Source of the DNA: a virus
IMG/VR virus record: IMGVR_UViG_3300037876_000116
Location: 92,520-156,519 of that record
Length of the DNA: 64,000 bases
Strand: one strand, 5' to 3'
Shown here: positions 18,833 through 55,804 of the stretch, piece after piece
Numbering within the stretch: the stretch's first letter is position 1
Layout: every line of letters begins with the position of its first letter
Made by a program: the position numbers and the translations under genes
Notes under the pieces: generated by a model
Told to the model about the DNA's origin: nothing
The model's database searches: none
Seen by the model: only the letters and a program-made list of their open reading frames with translations

Positions 18833-20017
18833 ATGCTATTTCAAGTACTAGATGATAAAGAAGAATGCCCAACGGTTTATCTTGACGGCAAGATTGTGCG
18901 TGAGCCCGACATGTCTGGCTTAACCAAGACGTGGCAGTGGAAGCCATCACTTGGTGACCTTCCTGTCGAGTGCGCTTATCTTTGGGCAGGAGGCAAGACA
19001 CTTAATGACCTTTGTCCCGAAGAGTTCCAAGAAGAATGGAGCAATCTAAAAAAGAAGTCCGCTGCCTTTAACATTGCTTTTAAAGAAGCTAAAATCCAAA
19101 CAAGAGATGTATGCCGAGACCTTCTTATGCCCGAAAGGTTCTTTAAGGAACTTTGTTTTCTAAAAAATAAGATCTCGGAGCATATCTTTAGCACTTACGA
19201 AAAGCCTTCCAACTATGATTTCCTTTTTGATCTTACTAAGGTCTTGGAGGAAATCAAATCCCAACCTCTTCGCATCGTGCCTTATAGTTTGGATGATAAA
19301 ATGGCTGCATACAAAACCAGGAAGTTTGCTCAAAAACTGCGTTACCTCCAACCCTATATTAATTACGATGTCTTTGGAACAGTCACAGGTCGCCTTACAA
19401 CAAAAAGAAATAGCTTCCCTATTCTTACCCTTGATAAAGACCACAGAGATATTGTCCACCCTAACAATGATGACTTCATCGAACTAGACTTTAATGCAGC
19501 CGAGATCCGCACGTTTTTAGCCCTAGCAGACATCCCACAGCCAAAAGGGGACATTCATGCCTGGATAAATGAAAACGTCTTTAAGGGGCGAAAGACTAGG
19601 GATGAGACGAAAAAGTCTGTTTTTGCTTGGCTATACAATCCAAAAGCATCCAACAAAAAACTTGAACAACTATTTAAAAGAGACGAAGTAATCGCCAAAT
19701 ACTTTGACGGAACGCACGTCAACACTCCTTTCGGTCGTAGGATAGAAACAACCAAGGAGAAGGCATTAAACTACATTATCCAATCAACTTCCTCGGACCT
19801 TTTTTTGCGAAGAATGATTGAGGTTCACAAGAAACTTAAAGGAAAAGAGACAAAGATTGCTTTTTGTATTCACGATTCGCTTGTTTTAGATTATAATAGG
19901 CAAGACAGAAAGATGTTGGAAGAAGTAATCAACATATTTGAAGAAACGGACCTTGGAGATTTTAAAGTAAATGTCTCTACAGGCAAGAACTTCGGCAAGT
20001 TAAGAAAGATTTTATAG
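18833..20017 (+). CDS. Family A DNA polymerase, minimal (polymerase domain only)
   Basis: 394 aa; GTVTGRLT, motif A LDFNAAEIR, motif B RDETKKSVFAWLY, TPFGRR, NYIIQSTSSD, motif C IHDS; no exonuclease motifs. Confidence 0.85.
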   Translation: MLFQVLDDKEECPTVYLDGKIVREPDMSGLTKTWQWKPSLGDLPVECAYLWAGGKTLNDLCPEEFQEEWSNLKKKSAAFNIAFKEAKIQTRDVCRDLLMPERFFKELCFLKNKISEHIFSTYEKPSNYDFLFDLTKVLEEIKSQPLRIVPYSLDDKMAAYKTRKFAQKLRYLQPYINYDVFGTVTGRLTTKRNSFPILTLDKDHRDIVHPNNDDFIELDFNAAEIRTFLALADIPQPKGDIHAWINENVFKGRKTRDETKKSVFAWLYNPKASNKKLEQLFKRDEVIAKYFDGTHVNTPFGRRIETTKEKALNYIIQSTSSDLFLRRMIEVHKKLKGKETKIAFCIHDSLVLDYNRQDRKMLEEVINIFEETDLGDFKVNVSTGKNFGKLRKIL

Positions 20018-20023
20018 GTATAA

Positions 20024-20860
20024 ATGGAAACTATCATAGGATTAGGCAACGCAGGTTGCAACATAACAAAAGTCTTCTCGCAATATCCTCAGTACAACTG
20101 TTATTACATCGATTCAGAGGCAAGGAAAGAAGAAAACTTCCTAAAGATACCCAAGAGGACCTCTCACGAGAAGTACGAAAGCTCATTTCCAACAAGGAAA
20201 GCAGAAGAGTTCCTTAAGAAAGTAAAAAAACCTACTCTTTTAGTGATTGGTGGCTCTGGAACCATTTCTGGTTGTTCCTTACGTCTATTAGAGCTTTTGA
20301 AAAAGAAAAAGCCCCACGTTCTTTATATCAAACCAGACTTAACTACCTTGTCTGCGGATAGAAAGCTACAAGAAAGATCAGTATATGGTATTTTACAGCA
20401 ATACGCTCGTTCTGCCCTCTTAGAACGCATGTTCGTTGTAGACAATACAAAGTTAGAAGAGGTCTTGGGTGATGTTCCTATCATGAACTACTACAATAGC
20501 TTAAACCGTTTGCTCGTGTCTACAATACACATGACAAATATTTATTCTAACACAAAGCCCCTAGAAACTAACTTCTTTGGACTTCACCCAACAAGCCGCA
20601 TAGCAACATTTGGTATGCTAGACCTTGAAACATCGCAAGAAAACCTTTTCTTTGATCTGGAGAACCCAAGAGATAAGACAATCTTCTATGCGATTAATGA
20701 AGAAAGCTTGGAGAAAGACGGCAGCCTTTTCAAAAAGATTAAGCAACAAGTAAATCAGTTTTCGGACGAAAATACAAACGTTTCTTACAAAATCTTCTCT
20801 ACAAATTACGATGATGATTATGTTTATTCGTTGTCTTACGCCTCTTTTGTACAAAAATAA
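20024..20860 (+). CDS. Tubulin/FtsZ-family GTPase (PhuZ-like)
   Basis: 278 aa; IIGLGNAGCNI, divergent signature GGSGTISG, VVDN. Confidence 0.75.
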   Translation: METIIGLGNAGCNITKVFSQYPQYNCYYIDSEARKEENFLKIPKRTSHEKYESSFPTRKAEEFLKKVKKPTLLVIGGSGTISGCSLRLLELLKKKKPHVLYIKPDLTTLSADRKLQERSVYGILQQYARSALLERMFVVDNTKLEEVLGDVPIMNYYNSLNRLLVSTIHMTNIYSNTKPLETNFFGLHPTSRIATFGMLDLETSQENLFFDLENPRDKTIFYAINEESLEKDGSLFKKIKQQVNQFSDENTNVSYKIFSTNYDDDYVYSLSYASFVQK

Positions 20861-20869
20861 ACTTTTTGC

Positions 20870-20897
20870 TTGAATCTTAGATAGCTGCGCTTATAAT
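20870..20897 (+). promoter_or_regulatory. Sigma70-like early/middle promoter TTGAAT-16-TATAAC
   Basis: One of 10 copies with an identical 16-nt spacer. Confidence 0.65.
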
Positions 20898-21000
20898 ACT
20901 ATTGTGTTTTTGATACACGATAGAAAATCATACGAAGAGTATAGAGGTTCAACCTTATTTTTAGTAGAATTTTTAAATAATTTTTTTAGGAGATAATAAT

Positions 21001-21726
21001 ATGGCTTTAGATATGAAAAAAATGAAAGCAAAGTACACTACTTTGCAAAATCGCGGTCGCGGTAACAATAAGAGTATGTGGTTCCGTCCGCAAGACGGAG
21101 AACAAGTTATTCGCATTGTTCCTACTGCCGATGGAGATCCGTTTAAGGAGTTTTGGCTCCACTACGGTGTTGGAAAGAACCCTGCTTTCCTTAGCTTGAA
21201 GCGTAACTATGGGCAGGATGACCCTATTGATAATTTTGTTCGCGCTCTTTATAATGAGGGTGACGAAGAAAGCATCAAGATGGCTAAAAGTATTTCTGCA
21301 AAGCAACGCTTTTTCTCACCTGTTCTTGTTCGAGGAGAGGAAGAAAAAGGTGTGCGTATCTGGGGATACGGCAAGATGGTATACGAGCAACTGCTCAATC
21401 TTGTTCTTAACCCTGAGTACGGGGACATTACTGATGTAGAATCAGGTACTGACCTCACACTTCAGTATGGCAAGCCTGCGGGAGCACAGTTTCCAGTTAC
21501 TAACTTGACTCCTCGTCGCAAGTCTTCTGGTTTGTCGAAGGATACAGATACTACAACAGGGCTTTTAGAGTCCATCCCGTCCATCGAAGAATCCTTCGAC
21601 AAGAAGAGCTTTGATGAAATGCAAACTATTCTAGATAACTTTATGAATGTTGCAGATGATTCGGCTGGCACCAGCCAGTATGGCGGTAACGCTATTGATG
21701 ACGCTCTTTCAGATTTAGATAGCTAG
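21001..21726 (+). CDS. Single-stranded DNA-binding protein (T4 gp32-like)
   Basis: 241 aa; WFRP..GEQVIRIVP, DPFKEFWLHY, YGDITD..SGTDLTL, acidic C-terminal tail. Confidence 0.8.
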   Translation: MALDMKKMKAKYTTLQNRGRGNNKSMWFRPQDGEQVIRIVPTADGDPFKEFWLHYGVGKNPAFLSLKRNYGQDDPIDNFVRALYNEGDEESIKMAKSISAKQRFFSPVLVRGEEEKGVRIWGYGKMVYEQLLNLVLNPEYGDITDVESGTDLTLQYGKPAGAQFPVTNLTPRRKSSGLSKDTDTTTGLLESIPSIEESFDKKSFDEMQTILDNFMNVADDSAGTSQYGGNAIDDALSDLDS

Positions 21727-21733
21727 ACTGTCT

Positions 21734-21767
21734 GTCCGCAGGGAGGCACGGGGTTACAGGTGTCTCA
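21734..21767 (+). repeat. Intergenic repeat copy 1 (candidate pseudoknot RNA element)
   Basis: GTCCGCAGGGAGGCACGGGGTTACAGGTGTCTCA. Confidence 0.85.
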
Positions 21768-21842
21768 ACATTTATGGTAACATTAATGTTCAATTTATCT
21801 AAACATAGATCGATTGAATAATTCACACACAAGGAGATAATA

Positions 21843-23084
21843 ATGTTTGAAAGATTAACAATGAAACAGTTTTTTTCGCAATATGCACCAGATAAGCATC
21901 GAACAGTAGCACCTGCTCAAATCCAAAGGATGCCCTGTTGGCTTGATAAAAATAAGCGCGAATATTTAAAATCATTCGCCGCAAATCGAGCCGAGCTATC
22001 ATCTTTTATTTTAGCAGATACTAGAAAGTCCAGAGATTTCTGCATTAACGAAGGAAGACCTGAAGACGCACGTTGGTTTGATAGTTTTCTTCAACAAGGT
22101 ATAGAGTTTTTGATTTTAGATGGACAAAATCGCATTGTAGCTTTGACCGAATTTATGAATAATAAGTTCAGTTTAACTGGAGATTTTATCGACCAGGATG
22201 GCAATCCCTGCACAATAGAAAACACGTATTTTAAAGACTTACCACCTCGATTGAAAGATAAGTTTTATACAGATTCAAAAATTTCTATTGCAACTGTAAA
22301 AGAAGCTACAAAACTAGACCTGCTAGAAATTTTCTTAGGCTATAATGAGGGAGTTCCTCTTAATGATATGCAAAAGCGCGATGCTACTTTCGGAGCAATT
22401 GGAACGTGGGTACACGATCTAACGGACCAATACGAAAATACTATTAGGCGTTTTGTCAAAGACGAAAACATGAAAGCTTCGGAAAGTTTACAATTTATTT
22501 GTAATGCATCAATGCACCTTATGCAGGAGTATAATGGATTTGAAGACAGTTTTAAGACTTTCACCAAAAAAACAATGGACAAATGGTATAATATTGGCTT
22601 TGATTATTATGATATTCATGATATGAATTCTCCATACCTGCCAGAGCAGCTAGAGAGAGTTGAAAATATTTTAAAAGATGTTTTTAATGTGATTGAAAAA
22701 CAAAAAATCACTCTATCTCGCGATGGAAAATTGTCTACACGCATGGTCTGGGCTGTATTGATGACTTGCGAATGGCTGTACGATGAAGGTTATGTTTATC
22801 AAGACGCAGCAGAGTTTTACAATCAGCTATATAATATCGACAAAAACCTTAGAGAAGATTCAGAGGTGCAATATGGAAAAGATCTAGAGAAGTATCGTAT
22901 TTCTGTGATTAAGGGTCAAACTGACTTAACTGAGCCAAAGGTAAATCAATACTATTCTCATATAGCCAATGTCCACAAGCAGCGAGTCACTAGGGCAAAC
23001 CGTTTCAAAATGTTGCTTGAAGAGATTTTAGAAAATTCTCGCCAACTCACAATACGAAAAAATGTTGTAAAACACGCAGCTTAA
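21843..23084 (+). CDS. DUF262 (ParB/Srx-like, GmrSD N-terminal) domain protein
   Basis: 413 aa; IQRMPCW and ILDGQNR motifs, IF..YNEGVPLN. Confidence 0.7.
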   Translation: MFERLTMKQFFSQYAPDKHRTVAPAQIQRMPCWLDKNKREYLKSFAANRAELSSFILADTRKSRDFCINEGRPEDARWFDSFLQQGIEFLILDGQNRIVALTEFMNNKFSLTGDFIDQDGNPCTIENTYFKDLPPRLKDKFYTDSKISIATVKEATKLDLLEIFLGYNEGVPLNDMQKRDATFGAIGTWVHDLTDQYENTIRRFVKDENMKASESLQFICNASMHLMQEYNGFEDSFKTFTKKTMDKWYNIGFDYYDIHDMNSPYLPEQLERVENILKDVFNVIEKQKITLSRDGKLSTRMVWAVLMTCEWLYDEGYVYQDAAEFYNQLYNIDKNLREDSEVQYGKDLEKYRISVIKGQTDLTEPKVNQYYSHIANVHKQRVTRANRFKMLLEEILENSRQLTIRKNVVKHAA

Positions 23085-23089
23085 TTTAA

Positions 23090-23123
23090 AACCGCAGGGA
23101 GGCACGGGTTAATAGGTGCCTCA
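23090..23123 (+). repeat. Intergenic repeat copy 2
   Basis: AACCGCAGGGAGGCACGGGTTAATAGGTGCCTCA. Confidence 0.9.
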
Positions 23124-23149
23124 TTTCACAATAAAAAAAAGGAACAAAA

Positions 23150-23347
23150 ATGAATAACGATACAAGTACACCAGACACACTTACTAATATGATTACCCTT
23201 CTAGAAGAAGTGCGAACGGATTATAATAAGTTTTATGTTGATGGAAATGCATCCGCAGGCACCCGAGTCCGCAAGGCAATGCAGCAGATCAAGACCGATG
23301 CTCATTCTGTACGTACTCATGTGCAGTCAACAAAGAACGGCGGCTAG
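23150..23347 (+). CDS. Histone H1-like (Hc1 N-terminal-type) small protein
   Basis: 65 aa; KFYVDGNASAGTRVRKAM matches the GNxxAGTRxRK motif. Confidence 0.7.
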   Translation: MNNDTSTPDTLTNMITLLEEVRTDYNKFYVDGNASAGTRVRKAMQQIKTDAHSVRTHVQSTKNGG

Positions 23348-23365
23348 CTCTTCAGTTAGTCGAAC

Positions 23366-23398
23366 ACCGCAGGGAGGCACGGGTTAATAGGTGCCTCA
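23366..23398 (+). repeat. Intergenic repeat copy 3
   Basis: ACCGCAGGGAGGCACGGGTTAATAGGTGCCTCA, identical to copy 2. Confidence 0.9.
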
Positions 23399-23426
23399 TT
23401 TTTTCACACACACACAAGGAAAAGAC

Positions 23427-23909
23427 ATGACTTTAAAAGAAAACCTAACTAAACTAAACTTAGAAGATACTTCTGTTGTTACCTTCACCTTCGAAGAAGG
23501 CACAGATGTTTTTCATTTTAATGAGACACATGTAGACACTGCACTCGAAGAAACCACAGTAGTGGATAAACTCGCGGAAGCGATTACTGCTGGTTTGGAA
23601 GTGGCTACAGAATACGGACACAACCCTCTTAATCAGCTTCGAGATTCTGAGCTTTTAAAAGGTTATGTACGTGGCACAGGAGAATTTACAGAGTTTGTAA
23701 GCTCTGTTATTAAAGAAAACTTCTGGGATGCAGATCTTGTTTCAGAAAGTACTGAACATTATGATCACAAACGAGGTTTTACAACGCTTTCTACAACCTT
23801 AACCGCGCCAGCCAAAGAAGTTCTTAGCAACTCTGCTTATGGAACTACATTCTCTGGATGGACAGCACAAGTTAATGTTAACGGCGGCACATTCTCGTTT
23901 ACTGTTTAA
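23427..23909 (+). CDS. Hypothetical protein
   Basis: 160 aa from the ATG at 23427 after SD AAGGA; the track's GTG start lies inside the repeat. Confidence 0.7.
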   Translation: MTLKENLTKLNLEDTSVVTFTFEEGTDVFHFNETHVDTALEETTVVDKLAEAITAGLEVATEYGHNPLNQLRDSELLKGYVRGTGEFTEFVSSVIKENFWDADLVSESTEHYDHKRGFTTLSTTLTAPAKEVLSNSAYGTTFSGWTAQVNVNGGTFSFTV

Positions 23910-23915
23910 ATAAAA

Positions 23916-23950
23916 ACCCGCAGGTAGGCACGGGGTATACAGATGCCTTA
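23916..23950 (+). repeat. Intergenic repeat copy 4 (divergent)
   Basis: ACCCGCAGGTAGGCACGGGGTATACAGATGCCTTA. Confidence 0.8.
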
Positions 23951-23974
23951 CTTTCACACACAAGGAACAAAACA

Positions 23975-24406
23975 ATGAGCACAGTTGAAAAAGGTACAAA
24001 AATTAAGATTCACTATAAAGGAACGCTTGAAGACGGAACAGAGTTTGATAACTCTAAAGCTAGAGGTTCTACCCTTGACTTTGAGGTTGGGGCAGGTCTA
24101 ATGATTCAAGGGTTTGATAACAATGTCCTTGGAATGGGCGAGGGAGAAGTAAGAACTTTCACTTTAGCCCCAGAAGAAGCGTATGGTCCAATCATTGAAG
24201 AGGCTTACCGCCTTTTTCCAAAAGAAGCATTTGGCGATAATAGTATCGAAATCGATTCCGTTGTAGAAGGTCACAATGGACAAGGGCAACCTATGATGGC
24301 TAGAATTGCAGATATTTCTGATGAAGGAGTGCTCCTCGATCTTAATCATCCTCTAGCAGGTAAAGATCTAACATTCGAAGTAGAACTTATTGAAATCGAA
24401 GAATAA
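23975..24406 (+). CDS. FKBP-type peptidyl-prolyl isomerase (SlyD/FkpB-like)
   Basis: 143 aa; HYKGTLEDGTEFDNS, PEEAYG, DLNHPLAGKDLTFEVE. Confidence 0.92.
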   Translation: MSTVEKGTKIKIHYKGTLEDGTEFDNSKARGSTLDFEVGAGLMIQGFDNNVLGMGEGEVRTFTLAPEEAYGPIIEEAYRLFPKEAFGDNSIEIDSVVEGHNGQGQPMMARIADISDEGVLLDLNHPLAGKDLTFEVELIEIEE

Positions 24407-24417
24407 AGGAGGATTAC

Positions 24418-25512
24418 ATGTCAGTAGGTAAAATGTCGCCAGACGACATAAGAAAACTTTTAAATAAAACTGCTGGACAGCAAATCTCCCACAATCTTAA
24501 TAAAGATAACCCTACAAATGTAAAAGAATGGATTCCAACTGGCTCGCGCTGGTTGGATTCCATTACTTGTAGAGGGAAACTTGCCGGTATTCCAGTGGGA
24601 AAAGTAACAGAGATTGCTGGTTTAGAATCAACTGGTAAGTCTTATATGGCTGCTCAGATAGCCGCCAATGCCCAAAAGATGGGTATACAAGTAGTGTACT
24701 TTGATTCTGAATCAGCCCTAGACTCATCTTTTCTTGAGAGGACCGGATGCAATGTAGATGATATTATCTACACTCAGGCAATCTCAGTTGAGAAAGTTTT
24801 AGAAATGATTGAAATGTTGATGATAAACAATGAAGGAAAGATGTTGTTTATTTGGGATTCGTTAGCTCTTACTCCGACAGAGAAGACTATTGAAGGCGAC
24901 TTCAATCCTCAGTCTTCTATGGCGGTGAAGGCACGAGTTCTTTCAAAAGGAATGCAAAAACTTACCGTTCCCATTGCAAACACTCAAAGTACAATGCTTG
25001 TTTTAAATCAGTTGAAAACTAACATTACACGCAATGTTGCAGAGACTCTAACCACACCCTATGTAACACCAGGCGGCAAGACACTTCCATATACTTACTC
25101 TTTGCGAGTGTGGCTCACATCCAGAAAAGCTAAGAACTCTTTCGTCACAGATGACAAAGGATTTAGGATAGGGTCAGAAGTTAAATGCACTTTAAAGAAA
25201 AGTCGCTTTGGAACACAAGGTCGTCAATGCACCTTTAAGATTCTATGGGGCGATAAGATTGGTATCCAAGATGAAGAAAGTTGGTTTGAAGCGGTTAAGG
25301 GAGCATCACAGATTGAATCTAAAGGTGCTTGGTATACTCTAACTCATAAAGACGGCAAGACTGAGAAGTTTCAAGCAGCCAAATGGATGGATAAACTTAA
25401 AAGTGAAAAGTTTAAAAACCGCATCGTGGAAATCATGGATGAAGAGGTTATAATGAAGTTTGACACCAGAGAAGGTAATGCATCAGATTTTTACGAAATA
25501 GACGAAGAATAA
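24418..25512 (+). CDS. recA: RecA/UvsX-like recombinase
   Basis: Walker A GLESTGKS, YFDSE, Walker B FIWDS, VLNQ, TPGGKTLPY. Confidence 0.88.
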   Translation: MSVGKMSPDDIRKLLNKTAGQQISHNLNKDNPTNVKEWIPTGSRWLDSITCRGKLAGIPVGKVTEIAGLESTGKSYMAAQIAANAQKMGIQVVYFDSESALDSSFLERTGCNVDDIIYTQAISVEKVLEMIEMLMINNEGKMLFIWDSLALTPTEKTIEGDFNPQSSMAVKARVLSKGMQKLTVPIANTQSTMLVLNQLKTNITRNVAETLTTPYVTPGGKTLPYTYSLRVWLTSRKAKNSFVTDDKGFRIGSEVKCTLKKSRFGTQGRQCTFKILWGDKIGIQDEESWFEAVKGASQIESKGAWYTLTHKDGKTEKFQAAKWMDKLKSEKFKNRIVEIMDEEVIMKFDTREGNASDFYEIDEE

Positions 25513-25520
25513 ACTATTTA
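25513..25520 (+). promoter_or_regulatory. Putative late motif ACTATTTA (leaderless position)
   Basis: 5 nt before the ATG at 25526. Confidence 0.5.
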
Positions 25521-25525
25521 TACTT

Positions 25526-25858
25526 ATGGATCATATCGTAGAAAAAGTGTATAGACGAATAGTAGAAGCCGTCGTTGCAGATGAAAAAGATCTTTTAAAG
25601 CTGAATGCTCAAATTATTATCAGCACCAACTACCAGATCTCCGACATTCTAACTACTATTCGTGCCTTCTCCGGCGTTGTTATTGTATCACCAGGAGGAG
25701 ATTCTAGAAAAATGGGAGAGCTTAAAGAAAAGTCAACTCTCAAGATGAAGATCTTACCTCCTTCTGATTTAAAAACGTACATCGAGGCGCTAAGAGAGAA
25801 GATTAACTCTATACCAGGAATTCTTTCTTTCAAAATGCGCCCAGCACGCAAAGAATAA
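25526..25858 (+). CDS. Hypothetical protein (ACT/ferredoxin-like fold possible)
   Basis: 110 aa; beta-alpha-beta-beta-alpha-beta-like pattern. Confidence 0.6.
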   Translation: MDHIVEKVYRRIVEAVVADEKDLLKLNAQIIISTNYQISDILTTIRAFSGVVIVSPGGDSRKMGELKEKSTLKMKILPPSDLKTYIEALREKINSIPGILSFKMRPARKE

Positions 25859-25873
25859 AAAAAAGAGGTAAAA

Positions 25874-26857
25874 ATGTCTGATAAACGAGTGATTGTTCTC
25901 GATATGAACAACTTGTTCTTACGGTCGTATATTATGGACCCGACCCTTTCGTTAAATGGAGCAGAGATTGGAGGCATACGAGGTTTTTTTCGTTCCCTTC
26001 AAAAGATTTGTAGAGAGTTGAACCCAACAAAAATTGTTGCTTGTTGGGATGGCGAAGGCGGTTCGCAAAAGCGCCGCAAGATATCGAAAGAGTATAAAGA
26101 AGGTCGCAAGCCTTTAAAGCTCAATCGCTCTCTTAGCGTTCTAACAGAAGAACAGAAAAAGAAAAACCAAATGTGGCAAAACATGAGGGTAATGGAGTAT
26201 CTTAATGAAACTCCCATCATCCAGTTTGGTTTTCCTGGCGTCGAAGCTGACGATGTTATCTCCAATGTAGTCCAGTCAAACAACTTGGCTGATTACAAGA
26301 AGATTATCGTTTCAGCCGATAAAGACTTTTGGCAGCTTGTAACCGATGATACGATTGTTTATCGCCCCATCGGCTCAGAGTTTGTTACAAAAGAGTTTGT
26401 CTTAGAGAAGGAAGGTATTCATCCTACTAACTTTGTTTTAGCACGAGCAATCGCAGGAGACAAAAGCGACAACCTTCCAGGTGTCCCAGGCGCAGGTCTA
26501 CCTACAATCGCCAAAAGAATACCTTTCTTGAAAGAAGAGAAAGAATGTTCCATTATAGAGATTCTAGATTATGCAGAGAAAATGTGCAATGAATCTAAGG
26601 TTAAGTTCTATCCAAAAATAATAGAAAACAACAAGCTCATCTTGAAAAACTACAAAATGATGCAGCTTAAAGCGCCTATGTTAAGTGCTCAAACGGCGAT
26701 AGCTATTCGTCGCACTTTACAGGAGGCAGAATACAAGTTTAATAGAACAAATTTTAGAACACATATGGTCAAAGATGGCTTTAATATGGAGAAGAATAAC
26801 TTTTCTGAACTTTTTGCTTTCTTTAACAACATCTGCCTTGAAAATAAGATTATATAG
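25874..26857 (+). CDS. 5'-3' exonuclease / flap endonuclease (T4 RNase H or PolI N-domain-like)
   Basis: LDMNNLF, WDGEGGSQKRR, YKEGR, EADDVI, SADKDFWQL, GDKSDNLPGV. Confidence 0.92.
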   Translation: MSDKRVIVLDMNNLFLRSYIMDPTLSLNGAEIGGIRGFFRSLQKICRELNPTKIVACWDGEGGSQKRRKISKEYKEGRKPLKLNRSLSVLTEEQKKKNQMWQNMRVMEYLNETPIIQFGFPGVEADDVISNVVQSNNLADYKKIIVSADKDFWQLVTDDTIVYRPIGSEFVTKEFVLEKEGIHPTNFVLARAIAGDKSDNLPGVPGAGLPTIAKRIPFLKEEKECSIIEILDYAEKMCNESKVKFYPKIIENNKLILKNYKMMQLKAPMLSAQTAIAIRRTLQEAEYKFNRTNFRTHMVKDGFNMEKNNFSELFAFFNNICLENKII

Positions 26858-53836: not shown

Positions 53837-55804
53837 ATGAAACAACTTATTGAAAACTGGAATAAATTTGTTATAAACGAGTCATCGTTAAGCAGGCTTC
53901 ATAAACACATTTCCGAACATGACACTGCTGTCATAACAGCGTTTAGAAATGACCCAACTGATGCAAACGATTGCAGCGGAGAAGCATCTGCTTCAAGCGA
54001 AGAGCAGGACGCACTTAAAATAAACAAAGAGCGTAATAGAGAGCTTAAAGCCACTCTTCTGCGCAAAGGATATGGCGTAACCCGCGTCGATGGCTCTTAT
54101 ATCGAAGACTTTGGTGATGTAGACAAACAAAAAGAAGTAAGCGAAGAAAGCTTCTTTGTTGTTAACCTTAAAGACGCAGCAGATTTTAACTCTACTGTTG
54201 CCCAGTTAGGGCAGATGTTTTGCCAAGATTCAGTTTTGATAATACCGCAGGGAGGAACCGACGCTTATCTTCTTGGAACTAACAATAGTTGGCCAGGACT
54301 TGGTGTCCAAGAACCAGTTGGAGGCTTTGCTGGCGGCAAAGAAGCAGAGTTTATGAGCCGCGTTAGGAAGCGTCCTTTTACTTTTAACGAGATAAACGAA
54401 CAAGAAAAGTACTCAGACCTCGGCAAGAACGCAAAGTGGGCAGTCGCGAAAATAGCAGAGAGAGTCTGGAATAGACAGGTTCTAGAAAATAAAATAACTG
54501 CTACCATGAAAGCTACAGAGGAAGGAATGCCTTGTCCAGCACCAACGCAAGATCTAGAGCTAAACACAAAGAACCGAGACGCTGCTATCCAAACAGAACA
54601 CATCCAGTACGGACCACTTAATGTTGATGAACCAGGAGACTACTGGAAAGACATAGCAGAGTATTGGAATACAACAGAAAAAGCCGCACAAAAGTCTCTT
54701 TGTGGAAACTGTGTAGCCTTCGATATTTCTCCAAGGATGGATGAATGTATGCCGGGTGAGACTTCAGACGACGACGGTCGGCTTGGATACTGCTGGATGC
54801 ATAAATTCAAATGTCATTCTGCCCGCTCTTGTAGAACCTGGGCAAAGGGCGGTCCCATCACAGAAGATAAAACTTCTTACGACTGGCAGGAGAGAAACCA
54901 GTCTGATATGGAAGAAGGTAAAATTTGCCCGAAAGGAATAGCTTGGGCAAAAAGAAACTATGATAAATGGCCATCCGCATATGCCTCTATGGGCGCAAGT
55001 AAATACTGCAAGGACCCAAACTATGGAAAAGGCAAGAAGAAAGATGAGTCATTACAAGAAGACGAGTTAGACGAATGCTGGAGTACGCACGAGCGCGTAC
55101 CGGAAACAGAAAAAGGCGCTCCTGGCTCCTGTAGAAAGAAAACTAACGAATCTGAAGCACTTGAAGAAAAGGGCGACCTCGCAAAATGGCGTGATGAAAA
55201 ATGGGTTCAGTCAGATGGTACTCCATGCGGTGATGCCAAAGCTCAAAAGAGCCCAAAAAGATGCAAGCCAAAATCCAAGTGGGCTACGATGTCTAAGGGA
55301 GAGAAAGCCGCCGATAATAAAAAGAAAAAGGCTGGTGGCAAGAAAGGAAAGCAATTTGTTTCTGCTACTAAAAAAGGTAAAGTTACCAAAAGCCACACAA
55401 AGGAATCTAAAGAAATGAAAATCTCTAAATCAAAACTTGAACAAATCATTAGAGAAGAAGTCGAAAGCCTATTCGAAGAAGACTTCTATGAAGTAGACGC
55501 CATCGACGTCAACGAAGAGTATTGTCCTGTGTGCAGAGAGGCACAAGAGCTTGAAGAAAAGAAAAAGAAAGCATGCAAACCCTCTAAAGGCAAAAGATTT
55601 GCTAAAAGAGTAGATGGTAAGTGCCGTTCCTATGGACAATCAGGCAAAGCAAAAGACGGCGGTGACCGTATTCGACCGGGCACAGCGAAGGCTGATGCTT
55701 ACTGTGCTCGCTCGGCTGGCATTAAAAAATGTAAGAACCCTCCTTGTGCTAACACCCTATCCAGAAAGAAATGGAAATGTCAAGGTAAGCGTTCGGTAGT
55801 ATAG
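53837..55804 (+). CDS. Multi-module, Cys-rich putative head-internal polyprotein
   Basis: 655 aa; basic Cys-rich modules separated by Glu-rich linkers; internal MKISK..IIREE leader. Confidence 0.6.
   Translation: MKQLIENWNKFVINESSLSRLHKHISEHDTAVITAFRNDPTDANDCSGEASASSEEQDALKINKERNRELKATLLRKGYGVTRVDGSYIEDFGDVDKQKEVSEESFFVVNLKDAADFNSTVAQLGQMFCQDSVLIIPQGGTDAYLLGTNNSWPGLGVQEPVGGFAGGKEAEFMSRVRKRPFTFNEINEQEKYSDLGKNAKWAVAKIAERVWNRQVLENKITATMKATEEGMPCPAPTQDLELNTKNRDAAIQTEHIQYGPLNVDEPGDYWKDIAEYWNTTEKAAQKSLCGNCVAFDISPRMDECMPGETSDDDGRLGYCWMHKFKCHSARSCRTWAKGGPITEDKTSYDWQERNQSDMEEGKICPKGIAWAKRNYDKWPSAYASMGASKYCKDPNYGKGKKKDESLQEDELDECWSTHERVPETEKGAPGSCRKKTNESEALEEKGDLAKWRDEKWVQSDGTPCGDAKAQKSPKRCKPKSKWATMSKGEKAADNKKKKAGGKKGKQFVSATKKGKVTKSHTKESKEMKISKSKLEQIIREEVESLFEEDFYEVDAIDVNEEYCPVCREAQELEEKKKKACKPSKGKRFAKRVDGKCRSYGQSGKAKDGGDRIRPGTAKADAYCARSAGIKKCKNPPCANTLSRKKWKCQGKRSVV

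Follow-up and report, generated by a model that had tools for sequence, protein, structure and literature searches.

The window examined here is the 64,000-nt stretch of viral DNA at positions 92,520–156,519 of the IMG/VR record IMGVR_UViG_3300037876_000116; coordinates below refer to the window. It contains four copies of a short intergenic element, here called E, which lie one behind another between a gp32-like SSB gene and the gene of a UvsX/RecA-like recombinase. E is a 33–35 nt sense-strand RNA with an H-type pseudoknot, and both of its stems are backed by covariation. Ten open reading frames (ORFs) around E, spanning 18833–26857, were scanned against Pfam and PHROGs. With the promoters and the copies of E, whose covariance-model scores are given in bits, the arrangement of the locus is as follows.

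18833–20017: PolA fragment (Pfam/PHROGs)
20024–20860: 278-aa protein
20870–20897, + strand: sigma70-type promoter, TTGAAT-16-TATAAT, ahead of the SSB leader
21001–21726, + strand: gp32-like SSB, 241 aa (PF08804, E-value 4e-13; phrog_1192)
21734–21767, + strand: E copy 1, 54.6 bits
21814–21841, + strand: promoter-like site, TTGAAT-16-GATAAT, between E copy 1 and the DUF262 gene (consensus match only)
21843–23084, + strand: cassette gene 1, DUF262/GmrSD_N-like, 413 aa (weak Pfam match, below the curated cut-off)
23090–23123, + strand: E copy 2, 61.5 bits, between the DUF262/GmrSD_N gene and the Hc1 gene
23150–23347, + strand: cassette gene 2, Hc1 histone-H1-like, 65 aa (Pfam/PHROGs)
23366–23398, + strand: E copy 3, 57.5 bits, between the Hc1 gene and the gene of the 160-aa protein
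23427–23909, + strand: cassette gene 3, 160-aa protein without a family match in Pfam or PHROGs
23916–23950, + strand: E copy 4, 49.6 bits, between the gene of the 160-aa protein and the FKBP gene
23975–24406, + strand: cassette gene 4, FKBP-type peptidyl-prolyl isomerase
24418–25512, + strand: UvsX/RecA-like recombinase, a core gene with which the variable SSB–UvsX interval ends
25874–26857: 5′–3′ exonuclease

Relatives of the window phage carry TTGACA-17-TATAAT at the position matching the window promoter 20870–20897. The FKBP–uvsX junction of the window genome has no E.

Each E is built around a 7-bp GC-rich hairpin (stem 2, S2), the loop of which pairs with the 3–5 nt directly upstream of the hairpin (stem 1, S1). 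The linkers are conserved: GCAGG in loop 1, a single G in loop 2 and (U)UACAG in loop 3, after which S2 closes and is followed by an A and a U-rich, G-free tail. A pattern search for CCGCAGGKAGGCACGGG returned exact matches on the + strand of the window at 21736, 23092, 23367 and 23918, with 0.05 matches expected from shuffles; these are the four places at which the first-pass annotation of this DNA had reported a repeat. A fifth match, at 54245, is not a copy of E, as it has three mismatches, lies inside a gene and lacks the 3′ half. Beyond the four copies, pattern and covariance-model searches found no further E in the whole 185,507-bp genome. From copy 1 to copy 4, the stop codon of the preceding gene is 9, 7, 19 and about 8 nt from the CC of S1, and the ATG of the following gene comes 76, 27, 29 and about 26 nt past the end of S2, distances that agree with those first reported. 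The long spacing after copy 1 is likely to be due to the promoter-like site at 21814–21841, which intervenes.

In copy 1, S1 is formed by GUCC (21734–37) and GGGU (21751–54), wobbles included, and S2 by GAGGCAC (21743–49) and GUGUCUC (21760–66), with one G-U pair; the linkers are GCAGG, G21750 and UACAG, and the A after S2 is at 21767. Copy 2 has AACC/GGUU in S1 and GAGGCAC/GUGCCUC in S2; its hairpin has a predicted energy of −12.8 kcal/mol (z = −2.7) and its loop 3, AAUAG, is a rare variant that it has in common with copy 3. Copy 3 combines ACC/GGU with the same S2, GAGGCAC/GUGCCUC, and continues with A and U6. Copy 4 has ACCC/GGGU in S1, and its S2, UAGGCAC/AUGCCUU, contains an inner C·A mismatch and an outer U·U; with a z-score of −0.21, this fold is no better than that of shuffles. 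The pairings between the 5′ flank and the loop, GUCC/GGGU, AACC/GGUU, ACC/GGU and ACCC/GGGU, are thus as they had been described. The S2 pairing GAGGCAC/GUGCCUC, which had been described along with them, is present too, including the G-U pair of copy 1, while the weakening of copy 4 had gone unmentioned. Copy 4 is a hybrid in that its 5′ half is of the GGCAC type and its 3′ half of the AUGCC type; its orthologues in three related loci (L132–L134; related loci are numbered with L throughout) have GGCAU/AUGCC. It is probably either a point mutant or a recombinant of two covarying types of E, with the crossover within the loop. In run X10, represented by the assembled contigs of a weakly matching RNA run, the change C>T is seen at 23931, within copy 4. 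Breaks at E in the contig assemblies of two such runs are caused by the repeat and carry no weight here.

The fold was evaluated on 147 distinct covariance-model matches from metagenomes. S2 is paired to 99.3% in this set, with double changes at four of its pairs (G-C 109 and A-U 25; A-U 140 and G-C 7; A-U 145 and C-G 2; C-G 83 and U-A 64) and G-U at one pair in 37 of the 147 copies. The variable pair of S1, 8:29, occurs as A-U (74), C-G (34), U-A (11), U-G (11) and G-C (3). Both CC/GG pairs of S1 are invariant in the set, and a change from C-G to G-C is found in L167. When the partner of the S1 strand is slid by 1–3 columns, pairing falls to 30–50%. The two purines at the junction, the first nucleotide of loop 1 and the single nucleotide of loop 2, also change together: among 112 distinct cores, 96 have G..G, 16 have A..A and none has a mixture, and alignment A4 contains one mixed case. 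Cores of the A..A class have a loop 3 ending in AUCAG, where the others have UACAG. Loop 3 accepts a hairpin insert right after the S1 strand and retains its terminal UA(A/C)(U/A)AG. The switch of the junction purines and the constraint on loop 3 point to a defined tertiary fold rather than to two independent helices. Since G-U pairs would be C·A mismatches on the other strand, and since the orientation of E is constant, the folded molecule is the sense strand, that is, mRNA. The H-type pseudoknot proposed in the first-pass annotation is accordingly borne out by covariation of both stems in more than 250 homologues.

Several other explanations of the conserved bases were tried and rejected. 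An alternative hairpin CCG...CGG (CCCG/CGGG) disagrees with the flank base, which covaries in the S1 register, and would be broken in the A..A variants. A coding role is inconsistent with the 1-nt indels and hairpin insertions in loop 3. GGGAGG does not act as a hidden Shine–Dalgarno sequence (SD), given that its variable base covaries with an intramolecular partner and that variants with A and U exist. CCGCAGG is complementary to the 3′ strand of helix 45 in 16S rRNA, which we take to be a coincidence, the match being lost in the variants CCACAGG and CCACGGG. Stimulation of stop-codon read-through or of frameshifting would suit the distance of E from the stop codon but is contradicted by the gap between the two, which has no frame preference (34/45/48 for the three remainders modulo 3), and by the many unrelated upstream genes; read-through is further disfavoured because the extension would add only a few junk codons. 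Finally, a private phage promoter does not fit the 1–4 copies per genome, the normal sigma70 promoter of the SSB gene and covariation of the RNA type.

More than 250 further copies of E were found on marine viral and metagenome contigs, all in the sense orientation. The covariance-model and metagenome search that had been suggested for the repeat therefore returned a family whose pairing is retained. In a scan of IMG/VR using a pattern with 14 specified bases, the complete element is present in at least about 75 of the matches among those listed. A narrower pattern matches at least 120 marine metagenome contigs, and the same pattern finds only four contigs of metagenome-assembled genomes among 185,579 species genomes, so that E is a phage element and not a cellular one. 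An unbiased set was made of 64 loci fetched by similarity of the SSB protein, with the RNA pattern left unused, and was searched with covariance model R1 at an E-value of ≤ 1. The search gave 72 matches, 71 of them clear copies and all 71 on the strand of the SSB gene; the weakest match (L173, 12.8 bits, E-value 0.44) is noise. In nearly all the SSB-selected loci that reach that far, the first copy of E lies 7–30 nt past the SSB stop codon. Complete or large records have one or two copies each, and the range per genome is 1–4, the four of the window being unusual. Across a large clade of marine phages, E is a generic element of gene boundaries. The suggestion that the four copies form a private cassette co-regulating five genes has to be given up, as E is clade-wide and, as a rule, one or two copies per genome follow the SSB gene directly.

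The window phage is present in seawater metagenomes of many studies. Neither the region nor a 45-nt probe of E matched the DNA of any isolate phage genome (INPHARED), and the nearest isolate RecA is only 31% identical to that of the window. Phages with E carry PolA; the clade is uncultured, marine and not T4-like. Three E-bearing records (G007, G009 and G010) have no detected homologue of the window SSB in 72–211 kb, these records being incomplete. The family of E is probably wider than model R1 detects. A diverged relative with the same layout and another S2 sequence, UCC-GCU-GGCAGAC-C-GGUAC...GUCUGCC, occurs at about 700–760 in L183, after the SSB stop codon. A sub-family (L014, L017, L027, L039, L042 and L110) has a hairpin of 20–25 nt inserted in loop 3, and its members always have a run of 6–9 C directly upstream of S1.

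The gap from the upstream stop codon is 6–13 nt in 102 of 127 copies, and the next start codon comes at a median of 25 nt after the end of S2 (interquartile range 22–28). In 83% of copies, S2 is followed by A at +1; the next six positions, +2 to +7, have 43–66% U and about 1% G and give way to an A-rich spacer and the SD. The spacer contains 43% A and 28% T and is poor in G where it adjoins E. A run of at least five U occurs in 35 of 128 copies; the 9–10 nt loop of E exceeds the size limit of the terminator scanner used. Often, a (CA)n run is found between the U-rich tail and the SD, for example UUUUUUCACACACACACAAGGA and CUUUCACACACAAGGA; in the window, such spacers occupy 21822–21835, 23406–23419 and 23955–23963, and there are many other loci with them. 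The run, an unstructured G-free spacer, might work as a translational enhancer or standby site. The stop codons that precede 127 copies of E are TAA (78), TAG (46) and TGA (3), and those of the long + strand ORFs of the window are TAA (29), TAG (12) and TGA (7). TGA looks depleted before E, which may be meaningless, the copies being phylogenetically related.

The upstream neighbour of E is mostly the SSB gene, and the downstream neighbours are diverse; a further E stands ahead of every gene that has been inserted between SSB and UvsX/RecA. Among 72 proteins encoded downstream of E, Pfam recognises RecA (19), FKBP (11), ClpP (4), Hc1 (2), Dam (1) and VWA (1), and many have no family; FKBP, with its 11 of the 72 genes, is the commonest accessory gene adjoining E in the relatives. 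In more distant, probably larger phages, E occurs in other operons, such as one with a MoxR-like AAA protein and a VWA protein, or upstream of ClpP; thymidine kinase and cytidylyltransferase genes provide further contexts. In one locus (L222, 9113–9230), a tRNA gene takes the place of the protein gene about 30 nt past E.

Some arrangements separate the two sides of the element. In L154, L169 and L190, the SSB–uvsX slot is occupied by a canonical terminator, a hairpin with U6–8, which is directly followed by the SD. In L108 (third copy), L048, L119 and L198, E closes a transcription unit, and a sigma70 promoter comes next. Copy 1 of the window keeps its 9 nt to the SSB stop codon and has 76 nt, with the promoter-like site between, to the ATG. 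The exchange with terminators, the copies preceding promoters or a tRNA gene, and copy 1 of the window link E with the place where the upstream cistron ends, not with the place where the downstream one starts. The first-pass annotation had dismissed a terminator for want of a U-tract. Copy 1 indeed has none, but copy 3 has U6; the terminator option is revived because the tail of the family is U-rich and canonical terminators share the slot in relatives.

The presence of four copies in the window is explained by the insertion of E-flanked accessory-gene cassettes. Window positions 20000–26000 were compared with the closest relatives by BLASTN. In L132–L134, which are 84–86% identical, window 20001–21767 aligns up to the end of their first E and 23367–26000 aligns from the start of that same E. 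The segment 21768–23366 (about 1.6 kb) is hence an insertion relative to L132–L134, and its junction is the 32-nt core of E. The inserted segment is bounded by copies 1 and 3 and comprises the promoter-like site, the DUF262/GmrSD_N gene, E copy 2 and the Hc1 gene. Gene orders in the relatives are nested: L135 has SSB-E-FKBP-UvsX and L132 has SSB-E-unk160-E-FKBP-UvsX, unk160 being the 160-aa protein. The order in L142/L079 is SSB-E-Hc1-E-FKBP, and the window has all these genes plus DUF262. The window and L142/L079 have E-Hc1-E units that are 92% identical, whereas the flanking SSB and UvsX are 70% and 67% identical, a sign that the cassette was recently exchanged laterally. L108 has an FKBP gene flanked by E at another site, upstream of the SSB promoter. 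Cores are identical in 14% of same-locus copy pairs as against 1.3% of random pairs. As the core is near-identical in many phages, it is usable as a homology patch, and the comparison shows the ~32-nt core in what seems to be this role, in the gain, loss and swapping of accessory cassettes in the SSB–UvsX interval.

Gene-free tandem E-E pairs, 9–13 nt apart, are present in L213 (2317–2403), L215 (2367–2453) and L236 (90–164); usually one copy is of the GGAAGGCAU type and the other of the GGGAGGCAU or GGUAGGCAC type. Such pairs could be empty cassette sites or double terminators. The DUF262/GmrSD_N-like gene, which corresponds to the N-terminal domain of type IV restriction enzymes, is an E-flanked phage cassette with its own promoter-like site and is missing from the closest relatives; it may serve superinfection exclusion or inter-phage competition.

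Taken together, E may be a pseudoknot-reinforced, terminator-like 3′-end or insulator module that doubles as a recombination linker, a proposal to which we give about an even chance. E would be transcribed within the SSB operon and would act at the 3′ end of the preceding cistron, both as a partial intrinsic terminator (attenuator) and as a compact, exonuclease-resistant structure capping the upstream message. SSB mRNA would then reach higher levels than the mRNA of the genes that follow, with each cistron structurally insulated from the ones next to it. Promoter-less cassettes (for example FKBP, Hc1, DUF262 and ClpP) would be exchanged at the core of E by the phage's own recombination system. 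The 3′-exonuclease block, one item in the list of mechanisms that the first-pass annotation offered, comes close to this proposal.

A number of observations weigh against such a module. No U-run of three or more is found within 12 nt in 36 of 128 copies, copy 1 of the window included, and an A stands between the stem and the U-tract. Most downstream genes lack a promoter, which means that termination would have to be leaky. A canonical terminator stands directly behind E in L078, so that E may not terminate there alone. The main weakness is that a plain hairpin would serve for termination or 3′ protection; the near invariance of the linkers and the G..G/A..A switch suggest an exact tertiary fold, perhaps for mechanical robustness, or else a specific partner or activity, none of which the proposal calls for. 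Part of the conservation may also come from homogenisation by recombination and not from function.

The excess of conservation over what a plain terminator needs is the basis of the most far-reaching alternative, which we regard as possible but distinctly less probable: E could be a new functional RNA class, a minimal self-cleaving ribozyme of about 34 nt or a pseudoknot sensor (of a phage or host factor or of a small molecule), that punctuates and tunes polycistronic messages. Neither the invariant GCAGG and ACAG linkers nor the G..G/A..A switch coupled to the change in loop 3 would be required for simple termination. If this were the case, the spread of E with mobile cassettes would be a consequence of its own activity.

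Recognition by a protein would likewise account for near-invariant loops, and E might be a translational operator of the T4 gene-32/gene-43 type, bound at its pseudoknot by a phage replication protein, most obviously the SSB encoded upstream. The bound protein would spread over or occlude the A/U-rich spacer and the SD 8–18 nt downstream, and translation of UvsX and the accessory genes would track the pool of free SSB. The architecture of E parallels that of the T4 gene 32 leader pseudoknot, the A/U-rich, G-poor spacer between the element and the start codon has a median length of 25 nt, and in most phages E is tightly linked to the SSB gene. However, E is downstream of the SSB gene and not in its leader, which has a different conserved hairpin, and copies are found at places lacking a ribosome-binding site (RBS), namely in tandem E-E pairs, ahead of a terminator or a tRNA gene, and where an operon ends and a promoter follows. 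The three incomplete E-bearing records of 72–211 kb without a detected homologue of the window SSB and the canonical terminators that take the place of E in relatives also speak against an operator, and we consider it unlikely.

The leader itself (window 20861–21000; L138–L194) deserves a separate description. Besides the sigma70 promoter, many relatives carry a covarying hairpin in it, with stems such as GGUUGG/ACCAAC, AGGUGA/UCACCU, AGAGUGA/UCACUCU and AAGCGA/UCGCUU, a conserved GAGAnUU loop and then (U/A)ACUnUAG. This hairpin may be the true autoregulatory operator of the gp32-like SSB. In the subclade of the window, the leader seems to encode an upstream ORF of about 30 codons (..DRKSYEEYR..), the stop codon of which overlaps the SD of the SSB gene.

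The next candidate, an RNA processing site, appears slightly more doubtful still. On this view, either E would itself be a small self-cleaving ribozyme of a new kind, or an endoribonuclease of host or phage would recognise it specifically; the polycistronic message would be cut into units with defined ends, the hairpin staying on the upstream product. The compact pseudoknotted core, the near-invariant unpaired nucleotides, the covarying non-Watson–Crick junction and the tolerance of a hairpin at one loop resemble features of small ribozymes, and the copies are repeated at phage gene boundaries. Hammerhead and twister ribozymes also occur in phages at gene boundaries. The single-stranded A-U-rich tail may be likened to RNase E-type sites. 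Nevertheless, the hammerhead, twister, twister-sister, pistol, hatchet, HDV-like and hairpin classes do not match within 21600–24100, even at an E-value of ≤ 10, and no conserved candidate cleavage site lies outside the fold. To our knowledge, 33–35 nt is below the size of any natural self-cleaving class, which counts against a ribozyme.

It is improbable that E is mainly a DNA recombination site, double- or single-stranded and integron-like, which the recombination machinery or a dedicated recombinase would recognise and in which the RNA fold would be incidental. The indel junctions inside E, the movement of E-flanked cassettes between phages and sites, the chimera-like copy 4, the partial homogenisation within genomes and the proximity to uvsX would all suit such a site. 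Yet compensatory changes retain both stems and G-U pairs work on the sense strand only, so that what is under selection is a single-stranded sense molecule; E and transcription always run in the same direction, there is no integrase or site-specific recombinase among the ten ORFs scanned (18833–26857), and the junctions can be accounted for, with no need of a dedicated site, by homologous recombination at any conserved patch of 32 nt.

The least probable of these explanations is a small pseudoknot riboswitch. Its built-in terminator would be the S2 hairpin with the U-rich tail, and read-through would be tuned by a ligand that stabilises the pseudoknot. In size and H-type topology, E fits known minimal aptamers (preQ1-I, guanidine-III), the invariant junction nucleotides could make a pocket, the hairpin is terminator-like and, in one subfamily (L012, L040, L050, L055 and L088), a hairpin sequestering the SD abuts S2, but the downstream genes (RecA/UvsX, FKBP, ClpP, Hc1, Dam, VWA-domain and small unknown proteins) have no common metabolic theme, no alternative (anti-terminator) pairing is conserved and no riboswitch family of Rfam matches.

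If the terminator-like linker module proposed above is correct, an uncultured clade of marine phages of 180–200+ kb would organise its operon for replication and recombination by means of a single tiny RNA fold, which is more conserved than the surrounding proteins and would set the expression of SSB relative to that of the genes downstream. E would then be a safe, portable docking site for promoter-less accessory genes, and the idea of regulatory cassettes as recombination linkers, known from the promoter-early stem-loop cassettes (PeSLs) discussed below, would reach ocean phages unrelated to T4-like coliphages. E would also add a well-supported pseudoknot to the catalogue of phage RNAs, with strongly covarying alignments of more than 250 sequences that are ready for covariance models, and an autonomous boundary or insulator of 34 nt would be useful in the design of synthetic operons. 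Were E a ribozyme or sensor, it would be among the smallest natural examples.

With regard to known RNAs, a search of the whole window against Rfam 15 at gathering thresholds gave two tRNAs only and nothing on E, and at an E-value of ≤ 10, region 21600–24100 gave two chance matches (a snoRNA and U4), neither of them on E. The statement that the repeat is not a known riboswitch or ribozyme, for which an Rfam check had been advised, thus stands: no family matches E. A literature search by core sequence returned nothing relevant; E is possibly contained, unnamed, among the roughly 10,000 candidates in a 2023 compilation of structured RNAs from viruses (PMC10690425), the main text of which treats only motifs upstream of gp32. 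E can be described as a regulatory or terminator-type linker of phage hyperplastic regions that is absent from Rfam and from the literature searched.

Like Rho-independent (intrinsic) terminators, attenuators and 3′ stabilising hairpins, E has a 7-bp GC-rich hairpin and a U-rich tail a few nucleotides past the stop codon, and in relatives it is positionally interchangeable with canonical terminators. It differs from them in its conserved 9–10 nt loop that pairs with the 5′ flank, in the A before the U-run and in a U-tract that is often short or absent; unlike that of ordinary terminators, its sequence is kept across phages with proteins only 40–60% identical. The preQ1-I, SAM-II and guanidine-III riboswitches are similarly small (~34–50 nt) H-type folds with conserved loop nucleotides, close to an expression signal, whereas E has its short stem on the 5′ side, no coherent gene set and no conserved alternative fold.

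Integron attC sites are imperfect palindromes of 57–141 bp, conserved in structure and not in sequence, that are recombined by IntI. The arrangement of the SSB–UvsX interval is like that of attC arrays in having promoter-less single-gene cassettes in one orientation, a folded repeat between them and an upstream promoter. In contrast to attC, E is short and conserved in sequence, no integrase is nearby and its junctions are explained by homologous exchange.

The autoregulatory pseudoknot of the T4/T2 gene 32 mRNA leader, the mechanism of which is summarised in PMC3014915, was compared with E at the sequence level. In both, the second stem has 7 bp, the short first stem is of the form xxCC/GGxx and the third loop has 5 nt; an unstructured, A/U-rich stretch leads from each to an RBS, and each is linked to a gene of a gp32-family SSB. 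The T4 element, however, lies in the leader of gene 32 itself, 67 nt upstream of the AUG, and has a 1-nt loop 1; E comes after the SSB gene, has a conserved 5-nt loop 1 and a 1-nt junction, shares no sequence with the T4 element and has some sites without an RBS.

The nearest described system in behaviour is that of the PeSLs of T4-type phages (Arbiol et al. 2010, PMC2839356; Comeau et al. 2014, PMC4122927). In both cases, a short conserved intergenic stem-loop motif flanks genes that are non-essential or ORFans, within a hyperplastic region bordered by core genes; the indel junctions of related phages fall inside the motif, as with the 21768–23366 insertion and its 32-nt core overlap in E; and a dual role, as terminator or attenuator and as homology linker, has been proposed. 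PeSLs are about 100 bp long and combine a strong sigma70 early promoter with a simple G/C-run stem-loop, whereas E is 33–35 nt long and promoter-less, the gap to the start codon (18–31 nt in most copies) leaving no room for a promoter. PeSLs belong to T4-type phages and E to an uncultured marine clade, and where the PeSL has a simple stem-loop, E has a covarying pseudoknot with near-invariant loops.

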